A stretch of DNA of 43,627 nucleotides from Escherichia phage TheodorHerzl. Where the stretch lies: sequence record MZ501107. One strand, 5' to 3'. A model generated the notes under the pieces. It ran no database searches and was not told the origin of the DNA. It worked only from the letters and a program-made list of their open reading frames with translations. This document shows, one piece after another, positions 1,948 through 43,627 of this stretch (its first letter is position 1; each line of letters opens with the position of its first letter). Both the position numbers and the translations under genes were made by a program.

Positions 1948-3468
1948 ATGACCGTTAACGTTGACAACCAGCACCCGCTCTATGCGCGCATCGCGCCAGA
2001 GTGGAAAATGATCCGTGACTGTGTAGCAGGGGAGCGCGCCGTGAAGGCGTGCGGCCCCTTATACCTGCCACACCCAGCCAGTGGCGACAACACTGACCCG
2101 AAAGCACGGGCGCGGTATAAGGCGTACAAGCAACGCGCTGTATTCATGAACGCCACCGCCCGTACACTTAACGCGCTGTTAGGCGTTGCCTTTGCTAAAC
2201 CGGTAAGTCTGGACCTTTCCGGGGCAATGGCTGACCTGATTGACGACGTAGACGGCAGCGGTATGCCGCTGCCGCAACTCCTGCGCGGTGCTATGTCTGA
2301 AGTTCTGCAATCAGGCCGTGCGGGCTTTATGGTCGACTACGACCGCCAGGCGCATTTTGATGAACTTGGTAACGTAGTGCCGCAGACAGCCGCCGAGATG
2401 GCGTCACACCGCCCGCTTATCCGCCTGTACACGGCAGAACAGATCATCAACTGGCGGCAGACCCACGGCGTCGATACGCTAATTGTGCTGAAGGAGACGG
2501 ATGAAATCAGCACCGAAGACCCGGACGACTTCGCAAACCACGAAGTAACAATCTGGACCGAGCTTCGCATGATTAACGGTGCAGCACACGCCCGCCGCTG
2601 GTACTACAACGCCGACACGTCCGAGGTGCAAATGGACTTGCCGCGTGGATTCACCCGCACCGACCTTGTACCGCTGGTGGATGCTGCCGGTAATGCGCTG
2701 ACACAACTTCCGTTTTGCTGGTGTGGCGCGGTGGATAACAACGCGACGCCAGACGCCGCGCCGCTGGCGGATATTGCATCCATCAACATTAAGCACTACA
2801 ACGCCGAAGCGGACGTCGCCGAGATTGCGCACATCGTGGGCCAACCTACCCTGGTGGCAACTGGCTTGACTCAATCATGGGCGGACAAAAACCTGAAAGG
2901 CGGCATCGCGCTCGGAGCGACTAAGGGCGTTATCCTTGGCCAGAACATGGACGCCAAACTGATTCAGGCCGAGGAGCGCAACTTGTCTGTTACACTGTGT
3001 GAGCGACGCGAATTGCAAATGGCTAAACTGGGCGCGGCCCTGGTCGAGAAGGGGACCGCACCTAAGACGGCAACCGAGGCGGCATACGATGCGCAGACTG
3101 ATAACAGTATCCTGTCGCTTATTGCCGGTAACGTTGAGAAGGCTTTCAACCGTGCGCTGCAAATCGTCCAGCTATTCACGGGCGACACTGCCGACCAGCG
3201 CGTAACGCTGAACAAGTTCTACACCGAAATCACGGTTGATGCGCAGCTTATGACCGCGATGATGTCGGGGGTGCAGACCGGCACGGTCCGCCTGGCTGAC
3301 TTCATCAAGTGGATGATGGCGCAGGGTGTCATCGACGACTCGCAAACCGTCGAGCAGGTGGAAGACGAATTGCGAAATCAGAATCCATTGCCCCAAATGT
3401 CCCCCGATGCGGTAGAATCTACCGAAGAAGACCCGGACAAGGTAGCGGACGATGGCGAGAACAATTAA
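1948..3468 (+). CDS. portal protein
   Basis: 506 aa ORF immediately after terL, with RBS AAGGAAA upstream and an acidic C-terminus. Assignment by size and synteny. Confidence 0.85.
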   Translation: MTVNVDNQHPLYARIAPEWKMIRDCVAGERAVKACGPLYLPHPASGDNTDPKARARYKAYKQRAVFMNATARTLNALLGVAFAKPVSLDLSGAMADLIDDVDGSGMPLPQLLRGAMSEVLQSGRAGFMVDYDRQAHFDELGNVVPQTAAEMASHRPLIRLYTAEQIINWRQTHGVDTLIVLKETDEISTEDPDDFANHEVTIWTELRMINGAAHARRWYYNADTSEVQMDLPRGFTRTDLVPLVDAAGNALTQLPFCWCGAVDNNATPDAAPLADIASINIKHYNAEADVAEIAHIVGQPTLVATGLTQSWADKNLKGGIALGATKGVILGQNMDAKLIQAEERNLSVTLCERRELQMAKLGAALVEKGTAPKTATEAAYDAQTDNSILSLIAGNVEKAFNRALQIVQLFTGDTADQRVTLNKFYTEITVDAQLMTAMMSGVQTGTVRLADFIKWMMAQGVIDDSQTVEQVEDELRNQNPLPQMSPDAVESTEEDPDKVADDGENN

Positions 3469-4555
3469 TCAATATATGGCGGACCGCATGATCCGCCGTC
3501 ACATCTTCACCCAGCGCCTGAGCAATGACCAGGCGCGGAGGGTGCTGGCTATGTGGGAGAAGTTCCGGCCCACGTTACTGGGTAAGCTGACCGAGTTACT
3601 TGATGGCAAAAAGTCCATGAATAACAAGGCACTTACCACACTTTTAACGCAACTCGACAAGACCGTTAAAACGGAACTGCGCGCCGAGTTTAAAGTGCTG
3701 GCGGAGAGCCTTCAGGAGTTCGCCGACACCGAGGCTGATTATCTCGCTGACACACTAACGGCAGCGATCCAGCCCGCTGTCGCCGTACCCGCTGTTGAAG
3801 TAGTTGGCGTTGTTACCGGCGCGCAGATTGCAGCGACGGCAGTGAAAAACCCGTTCCAGGGTAATACGATGATGCAATGGCCTGACTCACTTTCCGAGTG
3901 GACCCGGACGCAGATCGGCAACCAGGTGCGCGCCGGATTCATCCAGGGCAAGCCAACGATGGAAATTATCGCGGACGTGAGGCGCGCACTCGGCGGTCGT
4001 AGTGCGCAAGCGATCTCAAGCGTTGTTAAGTCCGCGGTCAACCACTATGCGGCGACCGCCCGCGAATTAATGGTAAAAGCTAATGACGATATTCTCGAAG
4101 GTCGCCAATGGTTGGCTACATTGGACACTCATACTTCCCCTATGTGCCAGCTACGCGATCGCCTGTTTTATCCTGTTGACGTCACTCCCGACACCAAAGG
4201 AAAACGCGGCGGGAAAGTGGTGGCGGGATCACAATATGGCGCTGGTCCGGGCAAGCTGCATTATTGCTGCCGTTCGACGGAGACGTGGAAAGTTAAGGGC
4301 ATGGAAGATTGGCCCAGTGGTAAGCGTCCGGCACTGAAGGCTGACGCGGGCCGATTGCTGAGTGAGCAGGTCGACGCGCAGACTGATTTCTTCTCCTGGG
4401 TGCAGCGCCAGCCTCGCCATATTCTGGAGGAATTATATGGGGTGCAGCGCGCCGATCAGATTATGCGCGGCGTGAAAGTTCCGAAGATGTTTACCGATTC
4501 TGGCGAACTGATGACTATTGCACAGCTTAAAAACCGGGGGTTATGGCGTGATTAA
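3452..4555 (+). CDS. head morphogenesis / minor head protein (Mu F / SPP1 gp7-like)
   Basis: 367 aa overlapping the portal 3-prime end. Position and the region WLATLDTHTSPMCQLRDRLFYPVD are typical of this family as I recall it. Confidence 0.75.
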   Translation: MARTINQYMADRMIRRHIFTQRLSNDQARRVLAMWEKFRPTLLGKLTELLDGKKSMNNKALTTLLTQLDKTVKTELRAEFKVLAESLQEFADTEADYLADTLTAAIQPAVAVPAVEVVGVVTGAQIAATAVKNPFQGNTMMQWPDSLSEWTRTQIGNQVRAGFIQGKPTMEIIADVRRALGGRSAQAISSVVKSAVNHYAATARELMVKANDDILEGRQWLATLDTHTSPMCQLRDRLFYPVDVTPDTKGKRGGKVVAGSQYGAGPGKLHYCCRSTETWKVKGMEDWPSGKRPALKADAGRLLSEQVDAQTDFFSWVQRQPRHILEELYGVQRADQIMRGVKVPKMFTDSGELMTIAQLKNRGLWRD

Positions 4556-4877
4556 GTATGCAGCGATTGGGCTGGTTATCGGTCTGGCGGTGGGATTCTG
4601 GCTAGGTGACTCCTATCGCGCTGGCGTAGTGGCGGAGGCGGCGCAAGAAGCGCAAGCCCAAGCCCAACGGCAGCAAACTAAAGTTGTTGAGCGCTCCGTG
4701 CAGGCAGAACAGGCCCGCGACGTAGAATACCGGACTATCACGAAAGAGGTTGTTAAATATGTTACGCGCCCTAACCGCCCTGATTGTAATTTTGATTCTG
4801 AGCGCGTGCGGATCAAGCAACGTGCCGTTGATGCCGCTAACGGAGTCGGCACTGCGACCGCCGTGCAAGTTCGATAG
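4548..4877 (+). CDS. putative i-spanin (Rz-like)
   Basis: N-terminal transmembrane helix AAIGLVIGLAVGFWLG followed by a charged coiled-coil-like region AQEAQAQAQRQQ. A lipoprotein ORF is embedded in another frame. Start is uncertain (GTG 4548 or ATG 4518). Confidence 0.55.
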   Translation: MIKYAAIGLVIGLAVGFWLGDSYRAGVVAEAAQEAQAQAQRQQTKVVERSVQAEQARDVEYRTITKEVVKYVTRPNRPDCNFDSERVRIKQRAVDAANGVGTATAVQVR

Positions 4878-4989
4878 CCCGTCCGCAGACCCCGACGAGG
4901 ATTTGATGATTGACGTGAAAAATATGGAATGCGGGGCGAATCTAAGGGCGCAGGTGCTGGAGTTGCAGCAAATAATTCGGGGGCCGTAA
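4759..4989 (+). CDS. putative o-spanin (Rz1-like outer-membrane lipoprotein)
   Basis: Signal peptide with lipobox MLRALTALIVILILSAC, a Pro-rich mature part with extra Cys, RBS GAGG 9 nt upstream. Starts inside the Rz-like ORF in a different frame and runs past its stop. Confidence 0.55.
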   Translation: MLRALTALIVILILSACGSSNVPLMPLTESALRPPCKFDSPSADPDEDLMIDVKNMECGANLRAQVLELQQIIRGP

Positions 4990-5002
4990 TGGCCCCTTTT
5001 TG
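4978..5002 (+). terminator. intrinsic terminator after the spanin pair (possibly bidirectional)
   Basis: GC hairpin GGGGCC-GTAAT-GGCCCC followed by TTTTTG; it overlaps the o-spanin stop. Coordinates approximate. Confidence 0.6.
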
Positions 5003-5006
5003 TTAG

Positions 5007-5519
5007 CTACAAACGCATCGGCATGATAACAAGGAAGGCACCGCCTTTGAACAGCACACGTGTCGCCTTGTCTACTCCCTGAAATTCCAGTTTTAAGCTA
5101 TCAAACTTACGGTCGAACAATTTAGCAATTTTGCAGGCGTCTGACAGGTATGCCCCAGCAAACCCGATAGCCTCCACTTTAGCGCTGTCGAAAGACGTAA
5201 ATCTACTCCAGTCTGGGAATCGGCCGTCTACGATCTCTATGGGTATGGTACAGATTAATACGTCTTTACTTTCAAAGAACGCAGCGGAGGTGCCGTCTAT
5301 GTTGCAGTATTCGAATTTAGTAGGTAAGCGGCCTTTAATTGCTACTATTTTACTTTCACCTTCGGGAACAACCGCGGACCCGCAGAACAAGCGATGACCG
5401 TTGGTGGCCACAATGAATCCTTTCTCGTCGAAAAATACACCATTTAGGTAGTATCGCACGTCATTAGTTGCGGCGCACATCGTAGCGGCTTTAAGTTCGG
5501 CATAGTTAACTTTAATCAT
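5007..5519 (-). CDS. truncated beta sliding clamp (DnaN domain II-III) homologue
   Basis: 171 aa from the ATG preceded by RBS AGGAA. DVRYYLNGVFF, ATNGHRL, IVDGRFPDW and C-terminal LVIMPMRL match E. coli DnaN DVRYYLNGMLF, ATDGHRL, LVDGRFPDY and VVMPMRL as recalled from memory. Domain I is absent. Confidence 0.8.
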   Translation of the reverse strand: MIKVNYAELKAATMCAATNDVRYYLNGVFFDEKGFIVATNGHRLFCGSAVVPEGESKIVAIKGRLPTKFEYCNIDGTSAAFFESKDVLICTIPIEIVDGRFPDWSRFTSFDSAKVEAIGFAGAYLSDACKIAKLFDRKFDSLKLEFQGVDKATRVLFKGGAFLVIMPMRL

Positions 5520-5540
5520 TGTCATTTCCTCGTTGTTGGT

Positions 5541-5580
5541 GTGCAACCAATATAGTGCAACCAATACGCGGATTGCAAGC
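5541..5580 (-). promoter_or_regulatory. sigma70-like promoter for the clamp-fragment gene, containing two ATTGGTTGCA motif copies
   Basis: Minus-strand reading gives TTGCAA, an 18-nt spacer that includes ATTGGTTGCAC, then TATATT, with a second TTGGTTGCAC just downstream. Coordinates approximate. Confidence 0.5.
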
Positions 5581-20390: not shown

Positions 20391-20410
20391 AAAGCCCCGC
20401 AAGGGGCTTT
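20391..20410. terminator. bidirectional terminator hairpin between the J-like gene and the convergent minus-strand cassette
   Basis: AAAGCCCC-GCAA-GGGGCTTT, A/T-flanked on both sides. Confidence 0.65.
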
Positions 20411-21344
20411 AATACATGTTTGGGAGGTACGGCAGCGGAGTTGGTATCGTAACGTCGGGTCTGTTGCCGATTGCGTACCTTACAATCCGGGAGCCAGTTC
20501 CCGACCTTACATATCCGCCACTCATAACTACGCCTTTGTTTCTTAGTTCCTTATATGCTGGTATGGCCCTTGTGTTGAACCCACACCTTAGAATGGGGAA
20601 GTAAGAATCCCCGATATACTGATTGCTTCCTGACAGACTTATAAACCCGGACACAACAAAGGGCCTGGTAACTGTTGAAAGAATACAGGCGCCGTTGCGG
20701 TTAAATATGTTTAACCCCGGTCCCGGAACGGGCGCAACCATCTGGAAAATAACCAAATCCATAGTAACACTTCCGGGGGTGTGCCCTGTATCTTTTGTGT
20801 TTATGTTTGTACAAATCAACCGATTAACTCCGTCGTACTCAACAGAAACACCGGAATTGTCCCACCTGCCGAACGGTATGCCGTAGATGGGGAGGGTGTA
20901 ACTATCATGGAATGATATAGTTTGAGCAAATTTGCAGACAAGCAACCGGTCCGTTGTGGTTATCGATGTAAAATCCGTACTGTCGGCAACGTAGATCCCC
21001 TGGCCTGTCGATGCTCTAAGAACCTCAACTACAGTTCCAGAGAACTGCGTTACGCGGTCGGGATAACCATTCACAGAGCCAATAGATATAGTTCCGCTGG
21101 ATGCTGTTGACGAAAAGCCCTTTATATAATAAGCCTCAACACCCCGGTCCAGTTCGAAGGAGTATGCGCCATTGTTCGGCAGCAGAAACCTTGAAGCCCC
21201 TTCATTACCTTTAATGGGGAATGACTTGCTAAACCCGCCACTTGAAACGTTGAAGTTACCCGCAAAATTCAAGGCACGCATACCCGCGGTGATTGTCATC
21301 GGTTTACGGCCATCCTTAAGATCGATGTAAATACCTTGCGCCAT
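20409..21344 (-). CDS. hypothetical beta-rich Ser/Thr/Gly-rich protein (311 aa), possible receptor-binding or host-range accessory protein
   Basis: Minus-strand ORF against the flow of the tail operon. Its ATG overlaps the stop of the upstream lipoprotein gene (TAATG). Appears lower in GC than its flanks, by eye. No recognisable motif. Confidence 0.6.
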   Translation of the reverse strand: MAQGIYIDLKDGRKPMTITAGMRALNFAGNFNVSSGGFSKSFPIKGNEGASRFLLPNNGAYSFELDRGVEAYYIKGFSSTASSGTISIGSVNGYPDRVTQFSGTVVEVLRASTGQGIYVADSTDFTSITTTDRLLVCKFAQTISFHDSYTLPIYGIPFGRWDNSGVSVEYDGVNRLICTNINTKDTGHTPGSVTMDLVIFQMVAPVPGPGLNIFNRNGACILSTVTRPFVVSGFISLSGSNQYIGDSYFPILRCGFNTRAIPAYKELRNKGVVMSGGYVRSGTGSRIVRYAIGNRPDVTIPTPLPYLPNMY

Positions 21345-21574
21345 TAGTTCCACTCCCGGGAGCCATAATCGCGAACGGAGCCGCCATGCCCTTTAATTCC
21401 GTCATAACGAATATCAACTTCACCCGCCGGAACGACTACACCGCCTTTCCATTTAGCCACACATACGCCGCTTGCTTGCGTAGCGCACCAACCATCCGGA
21501 CGCGGGCCAGAAGAGCAACCAACAGTTATTACTACTACCGCGGCAATGATTGCGGATTTGATTAAAGTTTTCAT
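21344..21574 (-). CDS. small outer-membrane lipoprotein (76 aa), candidate Cor/Llp-like superinfection-exclusion protein
   Basis: RBS GGAGAT upstream. Signal peptide with lipobox [20 protein letters not shown], and a mature part with two more Cys. Position next to the tail fibre genes matches where T1/phi80 cor and T5 llp sit. Confidence 0.55.
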
Positions 21575-41015: not shown

Positions 41016-41033
41016 TTATGCAAGCGTGATATA

Positions 41034-41067
41034 GTCCCAGTGAGCTAAAACTTACTGGGACTTTTTT
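41034..41067 (+). terminator. terminator-like hairpin plus T-run immediately upstream of the holin start
   Basis: GTCCCAGT-loop-ACTGGGAC followed by six T. Confidence 0.5.
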
Positions 41068-41358
41068 ATGGATAAGCTAAACGAGTGGTTATTTGCCATC
41101 GCATGTCTGGCAGGCGGCTTCGTAGGCGCACGCATTCATGGCGAGGCTACGAAAGGACCGCTAAACTTCGTTTTATATATCGTGGTCGGCTTCTTGTGTG
41201 CCGTTTTTGGCGCACCGGCTATTGCCGAGTGGGCTGGCTTATCTGGCGAGCGCACTGTCGCCGGTTTGGGCTTCGTAACTGCAATCTTCTGGATGCCAAT
41301 AGCCGCCCGGATCAGGGAGACTATTGAGTCGTTCCGACTTCCGGGGGGTGCAAAATGA
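41068..41358 (+). CDS. putative holin (three transmembrane segments)
   Basis: 96 aa with three hydrophobic helices and a charged C-terminus (RIRETIESFRLPGGAK), two genes upstream of the endolysin. Confidence 0.6.
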   Translation: MDKLNEWLFAIACLAGGFVGARIHGEATKGPLNFVLYIVVGFLCAVFGAPAIAEWAGLSGERTVAGLGFVTAIFWMPIAARIRETIESFRLPGGAK

Positions 41359-41600
41359 TTATCTCCGTCCTGTTGTTTGTTATCATAGGGGCTTCGTCCC
41401 TGTTTAACGTGTACGCGCCATCCGTTCAGGATGGCTTCTTCGGTCGGGTGTTATATCTGCTCACGGCGATGATCTGCATTATCGGATTGTTGCAGACAGG
41501 AGACGTATCAGATACTACCTGGACCGCGTTAATCTGGCTGTTTGCATTGCGCACACTGCGTAATGCTGTTTTGAATGGGGTAAAACATGCGATTCAGTGA
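41355..41600 (+). CDS. second holin-like / antiholin-like membrane protein
   Basis: 81 aa with RBS GGGGGG and two or three hydrophobic helices. Overlaps the endolysin start. Confidence 0.5.
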   Translation: MIISVLLFVIIGASSLFNVYAPSVQDGFFGRVLYLLTAMICIIGLLQTGDVSDTTWTALIWLFALRTLRNAVLNGVKHAIQ

Positions 41601-42078
41601 CAACGGTCTAAGATTTACGGCAGCATGGGAGGCTTTCAGCCCGGTGCCGTATTTCGCGACCAAGAAAGAGCAGGCCCGCGGCCTGTACACTTGGGGTTAT
41701 GGTCATACCGGCACTAATCCGCCTCGAAGCATTACCCGCGAGGAAGCGCTGGAACTGCTCAAGCGCGATGTGGCGTATGCCGAGGACTGGGTGAACAAAT
41801 ACGCACATCCGAGCATTAACCAGGCGCAATTCGACGCGCTGGTGGATCTGGTAATCAACGCCGGTCCGGGTCCGATCGTACCGGATGACGTCGCGAACGA
41901 CTTTGATGATGCGGTCCGCCTGGGCGACTGGGCGAAGGTACGGGCTACTCTGCCGCAGTTCCGCAAGCAAGGCGGGGAAGTGCTTAAGGGTCTGGTCCGT
42001 CGCGCAATCGGCAGGCAAGCACTATTCGATGGTAAGCCGTGGGACGTTGCCGAGAAAATCGGGCGTAACGCAGCATAA
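41587..42078 (+). CDS. endolysin (lysozyme, GH24-like)
   Basis: 163 aa. The N-terminus MRFSDNGLRFTAAWEAFSPVPY...GLYTWGYGHT and the LKGLVRRAIGRQALF motif are typical of T4/lambda-type lysozymes. Confidence 0.85.
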   Translation: MRFSDNGLRFTAAWEAFSPVPYFATKKEQARGLYTWGYGHTGTNPPRSITREEALELLKRDVAYAEDWVNKYAHPSINQAQFDALVDLVINAGPGPIVPDDVANDFDDAVRLGDWAKVRATLPQFRKQGGEVLKGLVRRAIGRQALFDGKPWDVAEKIGRNAA

Positions 42079-42268
42079 TACGAGGTAACACAGTATGTTA
42101 AAAAGCATTCTTGATCATAACGCCGACGCGCTCGCCGCGCTGGCTAAAACCTAAGATCCGGGCGCGCGAGCTATCATCGCGGATACTATCAACCACGCTG
42201 GGGTCTTCGATGCGAAGCTGCCAAGCCCACCCCCGCAGGAAGAGTCTGACCCCGTAGCGTAAACTATC

Positions 42269-42297
42269 AAGCCCGGTTAATTCCGGGCTTTTTATTG
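42269..42297 (+). terminator. intrinsic terminator after the lysis genes
   Basis: AGCCCGG-TTAATT-CCGGGCT followed by TTTTATT. Confidence 0.7.
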
Positions 42298-43497: not shown

Positions 43498-43627
43498 CCC
43501 CGCGCTGTAACCCTCCCAGCCTGCCGATTTGGTGGGCTTTTTTGTGCCTGTTATAATCCCACTTAGATGGCAGGGCCGTCTCCTATGTTGCCGATGGTCG
43601 GCGCATATGAACAAAAGGGCTTATATC

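Follow-up and report, generated by a model that had tools for sequence, protein, structure and literature searches.

A probable overlapped spanin gene pair in the head-gene block of Escherichia phage TheodorHerzl

In phage lambda the spanin genes Rz and Rz1 lie directly after S and R. They encode a protein with a transmembrane domain (TMD) and a helical periplasmic domain and, in the +1 frame, a small proline-containing lipoprotein of the outer membrane. The gene of the lipoprotein is fully embedded in Rz, both products have periplasmic cysteines, and the pair is presumed to disrupt the outer membrane after the peptidoglycan has been degraded. In phage T7 the spanins gp18.5 and gp18.7 are situated between the terminase genes. 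The T4 spanins pseT.3 and pseT.2 are unlinked to the holin and the endolysin (PMC6139136, Fig. 8 legend). Thus, spanin genes do not have to lie with the lysis cassette; adjacency is typical but not defining. A bioinformatic classification distinguishes the overlapped 'Jersey' families of i- and o-spanins, which list HK578, EP23, JL1, SSL-2009a, and SO-1 (Kongari et al. 2018, PMC6139136). In the short Jersey subfamily the i-spanin has two helices, a linker, and a variable unstructured C-terminal tip, and the o-spanin has a conserved C-terminal helix; one or more periplasmic cysteines for homotypic intermolecular disulfides are described as universal in spanins (PMC6139136).

The 43,627 nucleotides of Escherichia phage TheodorHerzl (sequence record MZ501107), the window analysed here, represent the whole genome, circularly permuted, of an HK578-like coliphage of the genus Dhillonvirus; its end joins its start in 102 public records. 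Two overlapping genes on its plus strand, 4548-4877 and 4759-4989, very probably code for the two subunits of an overlapped two-component spanin, the last-acting part of phage lysis. This reading is supported at the sequence level by the architecture of the locus, the family membership of both products, the conservation of both frames, and the gene context of distant homologues.

The i-spanin gene (4548-4877, 109 amino acids) was delimited by reading of the open frames, its PHROG match, conservation, and dN/dS. Its frame is open across 4518-4877, and GTG 4548 reads as the best start. A Shine-Dalgarno-like GGGGG (4536-4540) lies 7 nt before this codon, and four or five of its G are retained in all 17 distinct relatives that form our comparison set. 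The alternative start TTG 4518 was rejected because of this conserved G-run and because public annotation uses GTG 4548. The start overlaps the TAA stop codon (4553-4555) of the preceding MuF/SPP1 gp7-type head-morphogenesis gene (3452-4555, plus strand; phrog_241, E 1.2e-115), the overlap sequence being GTGATTAA. The o-spanin gene (4759-4989) is read in the +1 frame relative to the i-spanin gene and encodes a precursor of 76 amino acids and a mature lipoprotein of 60. Its ATG falls within codon 71 of the i-spanin gene and is preceded at 9 nt by a Shine-Dalgarno sequence GAGG (4746-4749), which is itself part of the i-spanin coding sequence; the surrounding AAGAGG is unchanged in 17/17 relatives. 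The two genes have 119 nt in common. As the o-spanin gene continues for 112 nt past the i-spanin stop, the arrangement is overlapped, whereas lambda Rz1 is fully contained in Rz.

The hydropathy of the i-spanin fits a single transmembrane helix: residues 1-19 are its sole hydrophobic segment (mean Kyte-Doolittle value 1.9), with the TMD at about residues 2-19. The periplasmic part is predicted to be helical and has a single cysteine, Cys80. The o-spanin starts with a lipoprotein signal peptide, MLRALTALIVILILSAC (4759-4809, plus strand), which matches a pattern of the PROSITE PS51257 type. The lipobox LSAC is encoded at 4798-4809 and the codon of Cys17, the predicted site of lipidation, at 4807-4809. 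By the same pattern test the +2 residue is glycine and an Asp retention signal is absent, which implies sorting to the outer membrane as judged from the residue. The lipoprotein signal that had been proposed for this product is thus present, and such signals are rare in the window: among 1570 candidate start sites only two are convincing, that of the o-spanin and one on the minus strand at 21574. The mature part contains seven prolines and two additional cysteines (Cys36 and Cys58 in precursor numbering). We also considered whether the 76-residue protein is a unimolecular u-spanin of the T1 gp11 type. This was rejected, as the protein is hydrophobic only in its signal peptide and lacks a C-terminal TMD (C-terminus ...LRAQVLELQQIIRGP).

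Single-sequence AF2 models, both of low confidence and consulted for their secondary-structure pattern alone, place helices at residues 3-72 and 84-97 of the i-spanin followed by an unstructured tail (pLDDT 58), and a C-terminal helix at residues 58-73 of the o-spanin (pLDDT 54). With the same reservation about these models, the pattern of both proteins resembles the published two-helix description of the Jersey spanins, and the C-terminal helix predicted for the o-spanin is a difference from lambda Rz1. A sequence search of the PDB with both proteins gave chance-level matches only (E 0.24 or worse) and hence no solved relative.

Both frames are intact in 17/17 relatives, with i-spanins of 102-109 and o-spanins of 76 amino acids. 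Both start codons, both Shine-Dalgarno sequences, the lipobox as L[ST]AC, Cys80 of the i-spanin, and Cys36 and Cys58 of the o-spanin are kept in every one of them. The part of the locus that codes for the i-spanin only has a dN/dS of 0.13 in its own frame, and the part that codes for the o-spanin only has a value of 0.10 in its own frame versus 4.9 in the other two; across the frames not proposed to be coding the values are 1.3-4.9. Inside the overlap the o-frame reaches 0.88, as is expected under dual-frame constraint. Both genes are therefore under frame-specific purifying selection.

Sequence comparison assigns the two products to known spanin families, whose labels, like the Kongari classification, are bioinformatic. 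The i-spanin matches phrog_2536 'Rz-like spanin' over residues 1-108 (E 2.5e-36) and the o-spanin matches phrog_5672 (E 7.8e-26) and phrog_1267 (E 6.2e-11), both also labelled 'Rz-like spanin'. Both subunits are placed by sequence in the second subfamily of the 'Jersey' family, which corresponds to PHROGs 2536 (i-spanin) and 5672/1267 (o-spanin). Orthologues are annotated as spanins in RefSeq. Publicly annotated spanin orthologues include gp05/gp06 of SO-1, a Jersey member with 86% identity for the i-spanin and 78% for the o-spanin, and 0005/0006 of Bas84 with 95% identity for each. The pair shares with the Jersey family the +1-frame overlap, a short i-spanin, the two conserved periplasmic cysteines of the o-spanin, and the place after MuF; two helices joined by a linker are suggested for the i-spanin by the low-confidence model. 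There is no material difference; the C-terminus of the i-spanin is allelic, with 109 amino acids here and 102 in the SO-1 type. Neither protein matched a family model in Pfam or NCBIfam, and other Rz-like PHROG families match more weakly (E 1.6e-06 to 2.7e-05). Thus, the likeness to lambda Rz/Rz1 is one of organisation, down to the periplasmic cysteines and the presumed action on the outer membrane, with no strong homology (no Pfam match). Many Dhillonvirus records call one or both open reading frames 'hypothetical protein' or omit the i-spanin, and in one Jerseyvirus record the i- and o-spanin labels are interchanged.

Distant homologues are found in a different context. On an IMG/VR contig (L023) homologues of phrog_2536 (8.1e-43) and phrog_5672 (1.4e-19) come directly after two holin genes and an endolysin gene. 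In Klebsiella phage Kp4865-4 (L026) the homologues follow a holin and an endolysin-like open reading frame (order read by eye), and a third sequence (L024) has one homologue near an endolysin. The pairs of L023 and Kp4865-4 share the overlapped arrangement and the motif RTIT[KR][ED]VVKYV...C.FD...R.RQRA[VI]DAAN with the TheodorHerzl pair but differ in position, being preceded immediately by holin(s) and endolysin, and their identity to the i-spanin of the window is only 34-42%.

In TheodorHerzl, by contrast with lambda, the spanin pair follows the head-morphogenesis gene and is adjacent to neither holin nor endolysin. Two holin genes (41068-41358 and 41355-41600, plus strand) match phrog_2359 (E 4e-32) and phrog_2508 (E 6.9e-27). 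The endolysin gene (41587-42078, plus strand) encodes a phage lysozyme (PF00959, E 6.4e-21; phrog_7, E 3.1e-35) without a hydrophobic N-terminal stretch. Among the open reading frames of at least 25 amino acids beside these genes there is no plausible partner pair of TMD protein and lipobox protein, no second spanin, and no u-spanin, in agreement with the original prediction. The small open reading frame 42095-42262 after the endolysin gene was rejected as a spanin, as it is the remnant of a non-membrane protein. The original prediction had also put the pair about 36 kb away from the cassette. The separation itself holds, as a phosphoesterase gene, terS, terL, portal, and MuF lie in between; the distance is artificial and reflects the point at which the linear record begins. 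Because end and start of the genome are contiguous, only ~6.1 kb separate the endolysin stop from the i-spanin start farther downstream, and both genes are on one strand. T4 also has unlinked spanins, but pseT.3/pseT.2 have a 'separated' architecture, belong to other sequence families, and lie in another genomic neighbourhood.

The pair is followed directly by an intrinsic terminator, as had been noticed from the sequence (4979-5004, plus strand): GGGGCC-GTAAT-GGCCCC and then TTTTTGTT, which supplies the T-run. The o-spanin stop codon lies within the loop GTAAT. The hairpin folds with -19.6 kcal/mol (z = -2.9) and is conserved in 17/17 relatives. Since the minus strand gives a terminator-like match too, the hairpin may act for the convergent gene 5007-5564 as well. 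Two further terminator-like hairpins (42269-42290 and 43518-43538) lie between the lysis cassette and terS, which makes co-transcription of spanins and holins unlikely without read-through. From consensus scans, the spanins would be the last two cistrons of a predicted terS-terL-portal-MuF unit, in which the overlap at the i-spanin start would couple spanin translation to that of MuF and the terminator would close the unit.

The placement in the head-gene block is standard in Dhillonvirus and Guernseyvirinae and not peculiar to TheodorHerzl. The order portal-MuF-spanins-scaffold was found in every Dhillonvirus copy examined and also in Kagunavirus and Jerseyvirus, so that related phages do share the position, and the position is conserved although the head proteins of Dhillonvirus and Guernseyvirinae are only 24-36% identical. 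The spanin genes and their head-block location are already part of public annotation and common to hundreds of related phages, and hence are not new; 667 phage records contain a homologue of the i-spanin. In a literature search we found no explicit discussion of head-block spanin placement in Dhillonvirus or Jersey-like phages; the papers found simply group these spanins with other lysis genes. The head-block position may set spanin dosage or timing via the packaging/head operon. It may also mark an ancestral complete lysis cassette from which holin and endolysin were later relocated. A cassette of this kind is seen in Aeromonas phage pIS4-A, where the head-morphogenesis gene is followed by three minus-strand open reading frames and, at a distance of ~1.6 kb, by an endolysin-holin-spanin group. 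That the fixed position, with its predicted coupling to MuF and its own terminator, has a functional meaning and is no mere accident of history appears to us rather unlikely.

Following the lambda Rz/Rz1 paradigm, we infer how the two proteins might act. The N-terminal helix of the 109-residue product would anchor it in the inner membrane, and its domain reaching into the periplasm would be largely helical. Processing and lipidation of the 76-residue product would take place at Cys17, and the Lol pathway would deliver it to the outer membrane, into the inner leaflet. Across the periplasm the two proteins would bind each other by their C-terminal parts, and the conserved cysteines would stabilise homodimers. 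Such complexes would be caught in the peptidoglycan mesh until the endolysin (41587-42078), released by the holins (41068-41600), has degraded the wall; then the spanins would fuse the inner membrane with the outer, or disrupt both, and free the progeny. As spanins build up harmlessly until the wall is gone, this scheme requires late expression and not linkage to the holin gene.

Other explanations of the locus have to be weighed against a spanin. The pair could be a 'moron' of a membrane protein and a lipoprotein that only resembles a spanin and has a role outside lysis, for example in superinfection exclusion or receptor blocking. Its place in the head operon apart from holin and endolysin would fit, as would the DNA just 3' of the pair, a variable locus with differing cargo genes among relatives; moreover, the spanin function of the Jersey-type family is itself inferred, and our literature search found no published genetic or biochemical test of any of its members. 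However, every relative has the pair, always at one position, while the neighbouring cargo varies; in unrelated phages homologues of both proteins directly follow the endolysin of a canonical cassette; and the genome is otherwise without a spanin. The lipoprotein and membrane-protein pair at 20409-21574 on the minus strand is in addition a better candidate for exclusion, so that we regard a moron as very improbable.

A spanin-derived relic that is no longer needed, the outer membrane being disrupted in another way, seems to us just as poorly compatible with the data. Spanin-less phages exist (PMC6139136), and in several relatives the spanins have 74-86% protein identity versus 89-100% for the flanking head proteins, but a relic is at odds with strong frame-specific purifying selection on both genes, with 0/17 relatives carrying disrupted copies, and with the conservation of start codons, Shine-Dalgarno sequences, lipobox, and cysteines. 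Finally, 4548-4877 could be the sole gene and 4759-4989 an untranslated by-product, since chance overlapping frames are possible in GC-rich DNA and the o-frame has the high dN/dS of 0.88 within the overlap. This is effectively refuted by the final 112 nt of the o-spanin gene, past the stop of the i-spanin, where dN/dS is 0.10 in the o-frame versus 4.9 elsewhere, and is opposed also by the ATG, Shine-Dalgarno sequence, lipobox, and 76-residue length that are invariant in the 17 relatives and by the phrog_5672 match of the product; we can practically dismiss it. Thus, the overlapping Rz/Rz1-like pair proposed for the head-gene block is borne out by its frames, TMD, lipobox, PHROG matches, and selection, and by comparison with the curated spanin sets, in which it falls among the PHROG 'Rz-like spanin' and Kongari 'Jersey' families.

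The importance of this assignment is slight beyond correct annotation, for which clear coordinates, starts, and frames are useful to curators. Nevertheless, the Dhillonvirus lineage is a clean natural example of spanin genes that are unlinked from holin and endolysin, and it would be convenient for asking whether expression of spanins from a structural operon affects the timing of lysis.

The i-spanin ORF (4518–4877, plus strand) has its annotated start at the GTG at 4548, as seen in the ORF list and the sequence, with GGGGG 7 nt upstream. This GTG overlaps the TAA stop codon of the preceding gene in the shared motif GTGATTAA; that gene (3452–4555) codes for a 367-aa head-morphogenesis protein of the MuF/SPP1-gp7 type (phrog_241, E 1.2e-115). 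The o-spanin ORF runs from the ATG at 4759 to 4989 on the same strand in the +1 frame relative to the i-spanin ORF and is preceded, 9 nt upstream, by AAGAGG. Both ORFs share 119 nt, and the o-spanin ORF ends 112 nt past the i-spanin stop. A GC-rich hairpin with a trailing T-run is found at 4979–5004 (−19.6 kcal/mol, z = −2.9); its loop contains the stop codon of the o-spanin. Thus, coordinates and frames agree with the original prediction of an overlapping pair whose second frame starts inside the first and which is directly followed by a terminator.

The predicted nature of the two products was also confirmed. The i-spanin product (109 aa) has the proposed N-terminal membrane segment, a single hydrophobic stretch at residues 1–19 with a mean Kyte–Doolittle value of 1.9, and is otherwise rich in Ala, Val, Gln, Arg, and Glu. 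The o-spanin product (76 aa) begins with MLRALTALIVILILSAC and satisfies the PROSITE-type lipobox rule of a lipoprotein, the +2 residue behind Cys17 being Gly. The mature part of 60 aa contains seven prolines and two further cysteines. AlphaFold2 models of the single sequences are of low confidence (pLDDT 58 and 54). They place helices at residues 3–72 and 84–97 of the i-spanin with a Cys-containing linker; in the o-spanin model, a disordered stretch that contains Pro separates the signal helix from a C-terminal helix (58–73). These helix patterns match the published description of the Jersey spanin family by Kongari et al., who describe this shorter subfamily with two constant o-spanin cysteines (PMC6139136).

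Among 1570 possible starts in the whole window, a convincing lipoprotein signal was found only for the o-spanin ORF and for a 76-aa ORF on the minus strand (21347–21574; phrog_4281, function unknown). The latter adjoins a 314-aa “membrane protein” moron (20409–21353, minus; phrog_1265). These two genes, which are flanked by the tail genes and the next plus-strand gene and run antisense to the tail genes, are a candidate superinfection-exclusion or receptor-blocking pair.

We compared the window with 16 further distinct copies of the region 4500–5012 from IMG/VR and GenBank relatives (80–97% DNA identity). All 17 copies keep the GTG at 4548, the ATG at 4759, the lipobox L[ST]AC, the terminator hairpin, Cys80 of the i-spanin, and Cys36 and Cys58 of the o-spanin. 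The Shine–Dalgarno elements are likewise kept throughout, that of the o-spanin being invariant and that of the i-spanin being a run of four to five G. The i-spanin ORF has 109 or 102 codons and the o-spanin ORF always 76. By the Nei–Gojobori method, dN/dS in the i-spanin-only part is 0.13 in its own frame compared with 1.3 and 2.2 in the other two, and in the 112 nt specific to the o-spanin it is 0.10 compared with 4.9 in both other frames. Where the two genes overlap, dN/dS is 0.37 in the i-spanin and 0.88 in the o-spanin frame and synonymous change is reduced, as expected under double constraint. The lack of conservation of the overlapping frame that would have refuted the original reading was thus not seen, and this frame is a selected gene.

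Six relatives (loci L001, L009, L016, L018, L019, and L028) carry spanins markedly more diverged than the flanking genes when compared with 4548–4989. In five of them the i-spanin is 82–86% and the o-spanin 76–78% identical, whereas portal, MuF, and scaffold reach 97–100%; in L019 the divergence extends throughout (75 and 74%, flanking genes 89–91%). Dhillonvirus spanins fall into two main allelic types, which differ in i-spanin length (109 or 102 aa). These sequence comparisons suggest that alleles of the pair are exchanged or that the pair evolves faster.

Searches of Pfam, NCBIfam, and PDB with both proteins found no family or relative. The i-spanin matches phrog_2536 over its full length (E 2.5e-36) and the o-spanin matches phrog_5672 (E 7.8e-26) and phrog_1267 (E 6.2e-11), all three labelled “Rz-like spanin”. 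A tblastn search with the i-spanin protein matched 667 phage records. In a 38-kb IMG/VR contig (L023, 39% identity) a homologous overlapped pair matching the same two PHROGs directly follows holin–holin–endolysin. In Klebsiella phage Kp4865-4 (42%) the pair comes after a holin and an ORF resembling an endolysin, as judged from ORF order and sequence in this unannotated record, and at a further locus (L024) a homologue lies near an endolysin. Genomic position in unrelated phages thus links the family to lysis and backs the spanin assignment independently. Taken together, architecture, selection in frame, family labels, and homologue context support the i-spanin/o-spanin reading, and we are confident that the pair are spanins, with a small residual doubt about function.

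More than 150 Dhillonvirus siphophages of Escherichia, Shigella, and Sodalis, including HK578, EP23, SO-1, and JL1, match the 2.3-kb stretch around the pair at 91–96% identity. The window begins with the ATG of terS. When its last and first 500 bases were joined into a 1-kb query, 102 public records contained this sequence without a break, which identifies the window as a complete, circularly permuted genome opened at terS. Two holins (41068–41358 and 41355–41600) and a phage-lysozyme endolysin (41587–42078) lie on the plus strand, and no spanin-like ORF was found beside them, as predicted. The proposed distance of 36 kb holds for the linear map, but on a map drawn as a circle or concatemer the cassette comes before the pair on the same strand, and only 6,096 nt separate the endolysin stop (42078) from the i-spanin start. 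The intervening stretch, continuous across the junction in SECphi18, comprises a small ORF remnant, a phosphoesterase or exonuclease gene, and, as anticipated, terS, terL, portal, and MuF.

The small ORF (42095–42262, plus) is the counterpart of SECphi18 gp16 (87 aa, mislabelled “major tail protein”). Its codon 20 is an in-frame TAA, and SECphi18 has a longer version of the locus. The gene seems to have decayed, and neither a transmembrane domain nor a lipobox was detected in it.

In consensus scans, plus-strand terminator-like hairpins with T-runs bracket the holin–holin–endolysin cassette (41033–41062 and 42269–42290) and another precedes terS (43518–43538). These hairpins suggest that the lysis cassette, the phosphoesterase gene, and the packaging–head–spanin block are each transcribed as a unit of their own. 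The block would then start with terS and end with the two spanin cistrons, where the hairpin at 4979–5004 would close it.

The placement is shared by related phages. All 17 Dhillonvirus-type copies have the order portal–MuF–i-spanin–o-spanin–variable slot (0.6–1.5 kb)–scaffold–major capsid protein. Kagunavirus K1H and the Jerseyviruses S532 and LDT325 have the same order plus a Hoc-like gene after MuF, with portal, MuF, and scaffold only 24–36% identical to those of the window. A Jerseyvirus paper reports the same four PHROGs in the same relative positions, with spanins Gp_009/Gp_010 and holins Gp_063/Gp_064 (PMC9409062). In Aeromonas phage pIS4-A the head-morphogenesis gene is followed, after ∼1.6 kb with three minus-strand ORFs, by an endolysin–holin–spanin cassette, which hints that the head-block site may once have held a whole lysis cassette.

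The slot between spanin terminator and scaffold is variable, as is the distance to the scaffold gene. Here it holds a 185-aa gene convergent with the pair (5007–5564, minus) whose labels conflict: “RusA-like Holliday junction resolvase” in PHROG and RefSeq, “DNA polymerase III beta subunit” in GenBank, with weak similarity to the DNA polymerase III beta/sliding-clamp family (PF02767, E 1.3e-4; phrog_947). In other Dhillonviruses the slot gene is annotated as Nmad5-domain or nucleotide-modification-associated.

RefSeq names SO-1 gp05 and gp06 “Rz-like spanin”, and Bas84 0005 (“i-spanin”) and 0006 (“Rz-like spanin”) have coordinates identical to those in the window. In SECphi18 only the o-spanin is annotated. 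In Salmonella phage vB_SenS_S532 (NC_073188.1, 4276–4771) RefSeq seems to have exchanged the two labels, giving “o-spanin” to the longer ORF upstream (4276–4662) and “i-Spanin” to the downstream one, whose annotated start at 4628 is apparently truncated. In the literature we found no explicit remark on the head-block placement of spanins in these lineages and no experimental test of any family member. In T7, the spanin genes 18.5 and 18.7 sit between the terminase genes.

The pair is a member of a known, catalogued spanin family in its usual place. By analogy to the established model of lambda Rz/Rz1, the i-spanin would reside in the inner membrane and the o-spanin, once lipidated, in the outer one; the two would bind each other across the periplasm through their C-terminal parts, and cysteines would lock homodimers. 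The peptidoglycan mesh would keep these complexes inactive; the holins would then pass the endolysin through, and once the wall is destroyed the spanins would disrupt or fuse both membranes. As spanins would be harmless until then, late expression would suffice and their unlinking from the holin would be tolerated.
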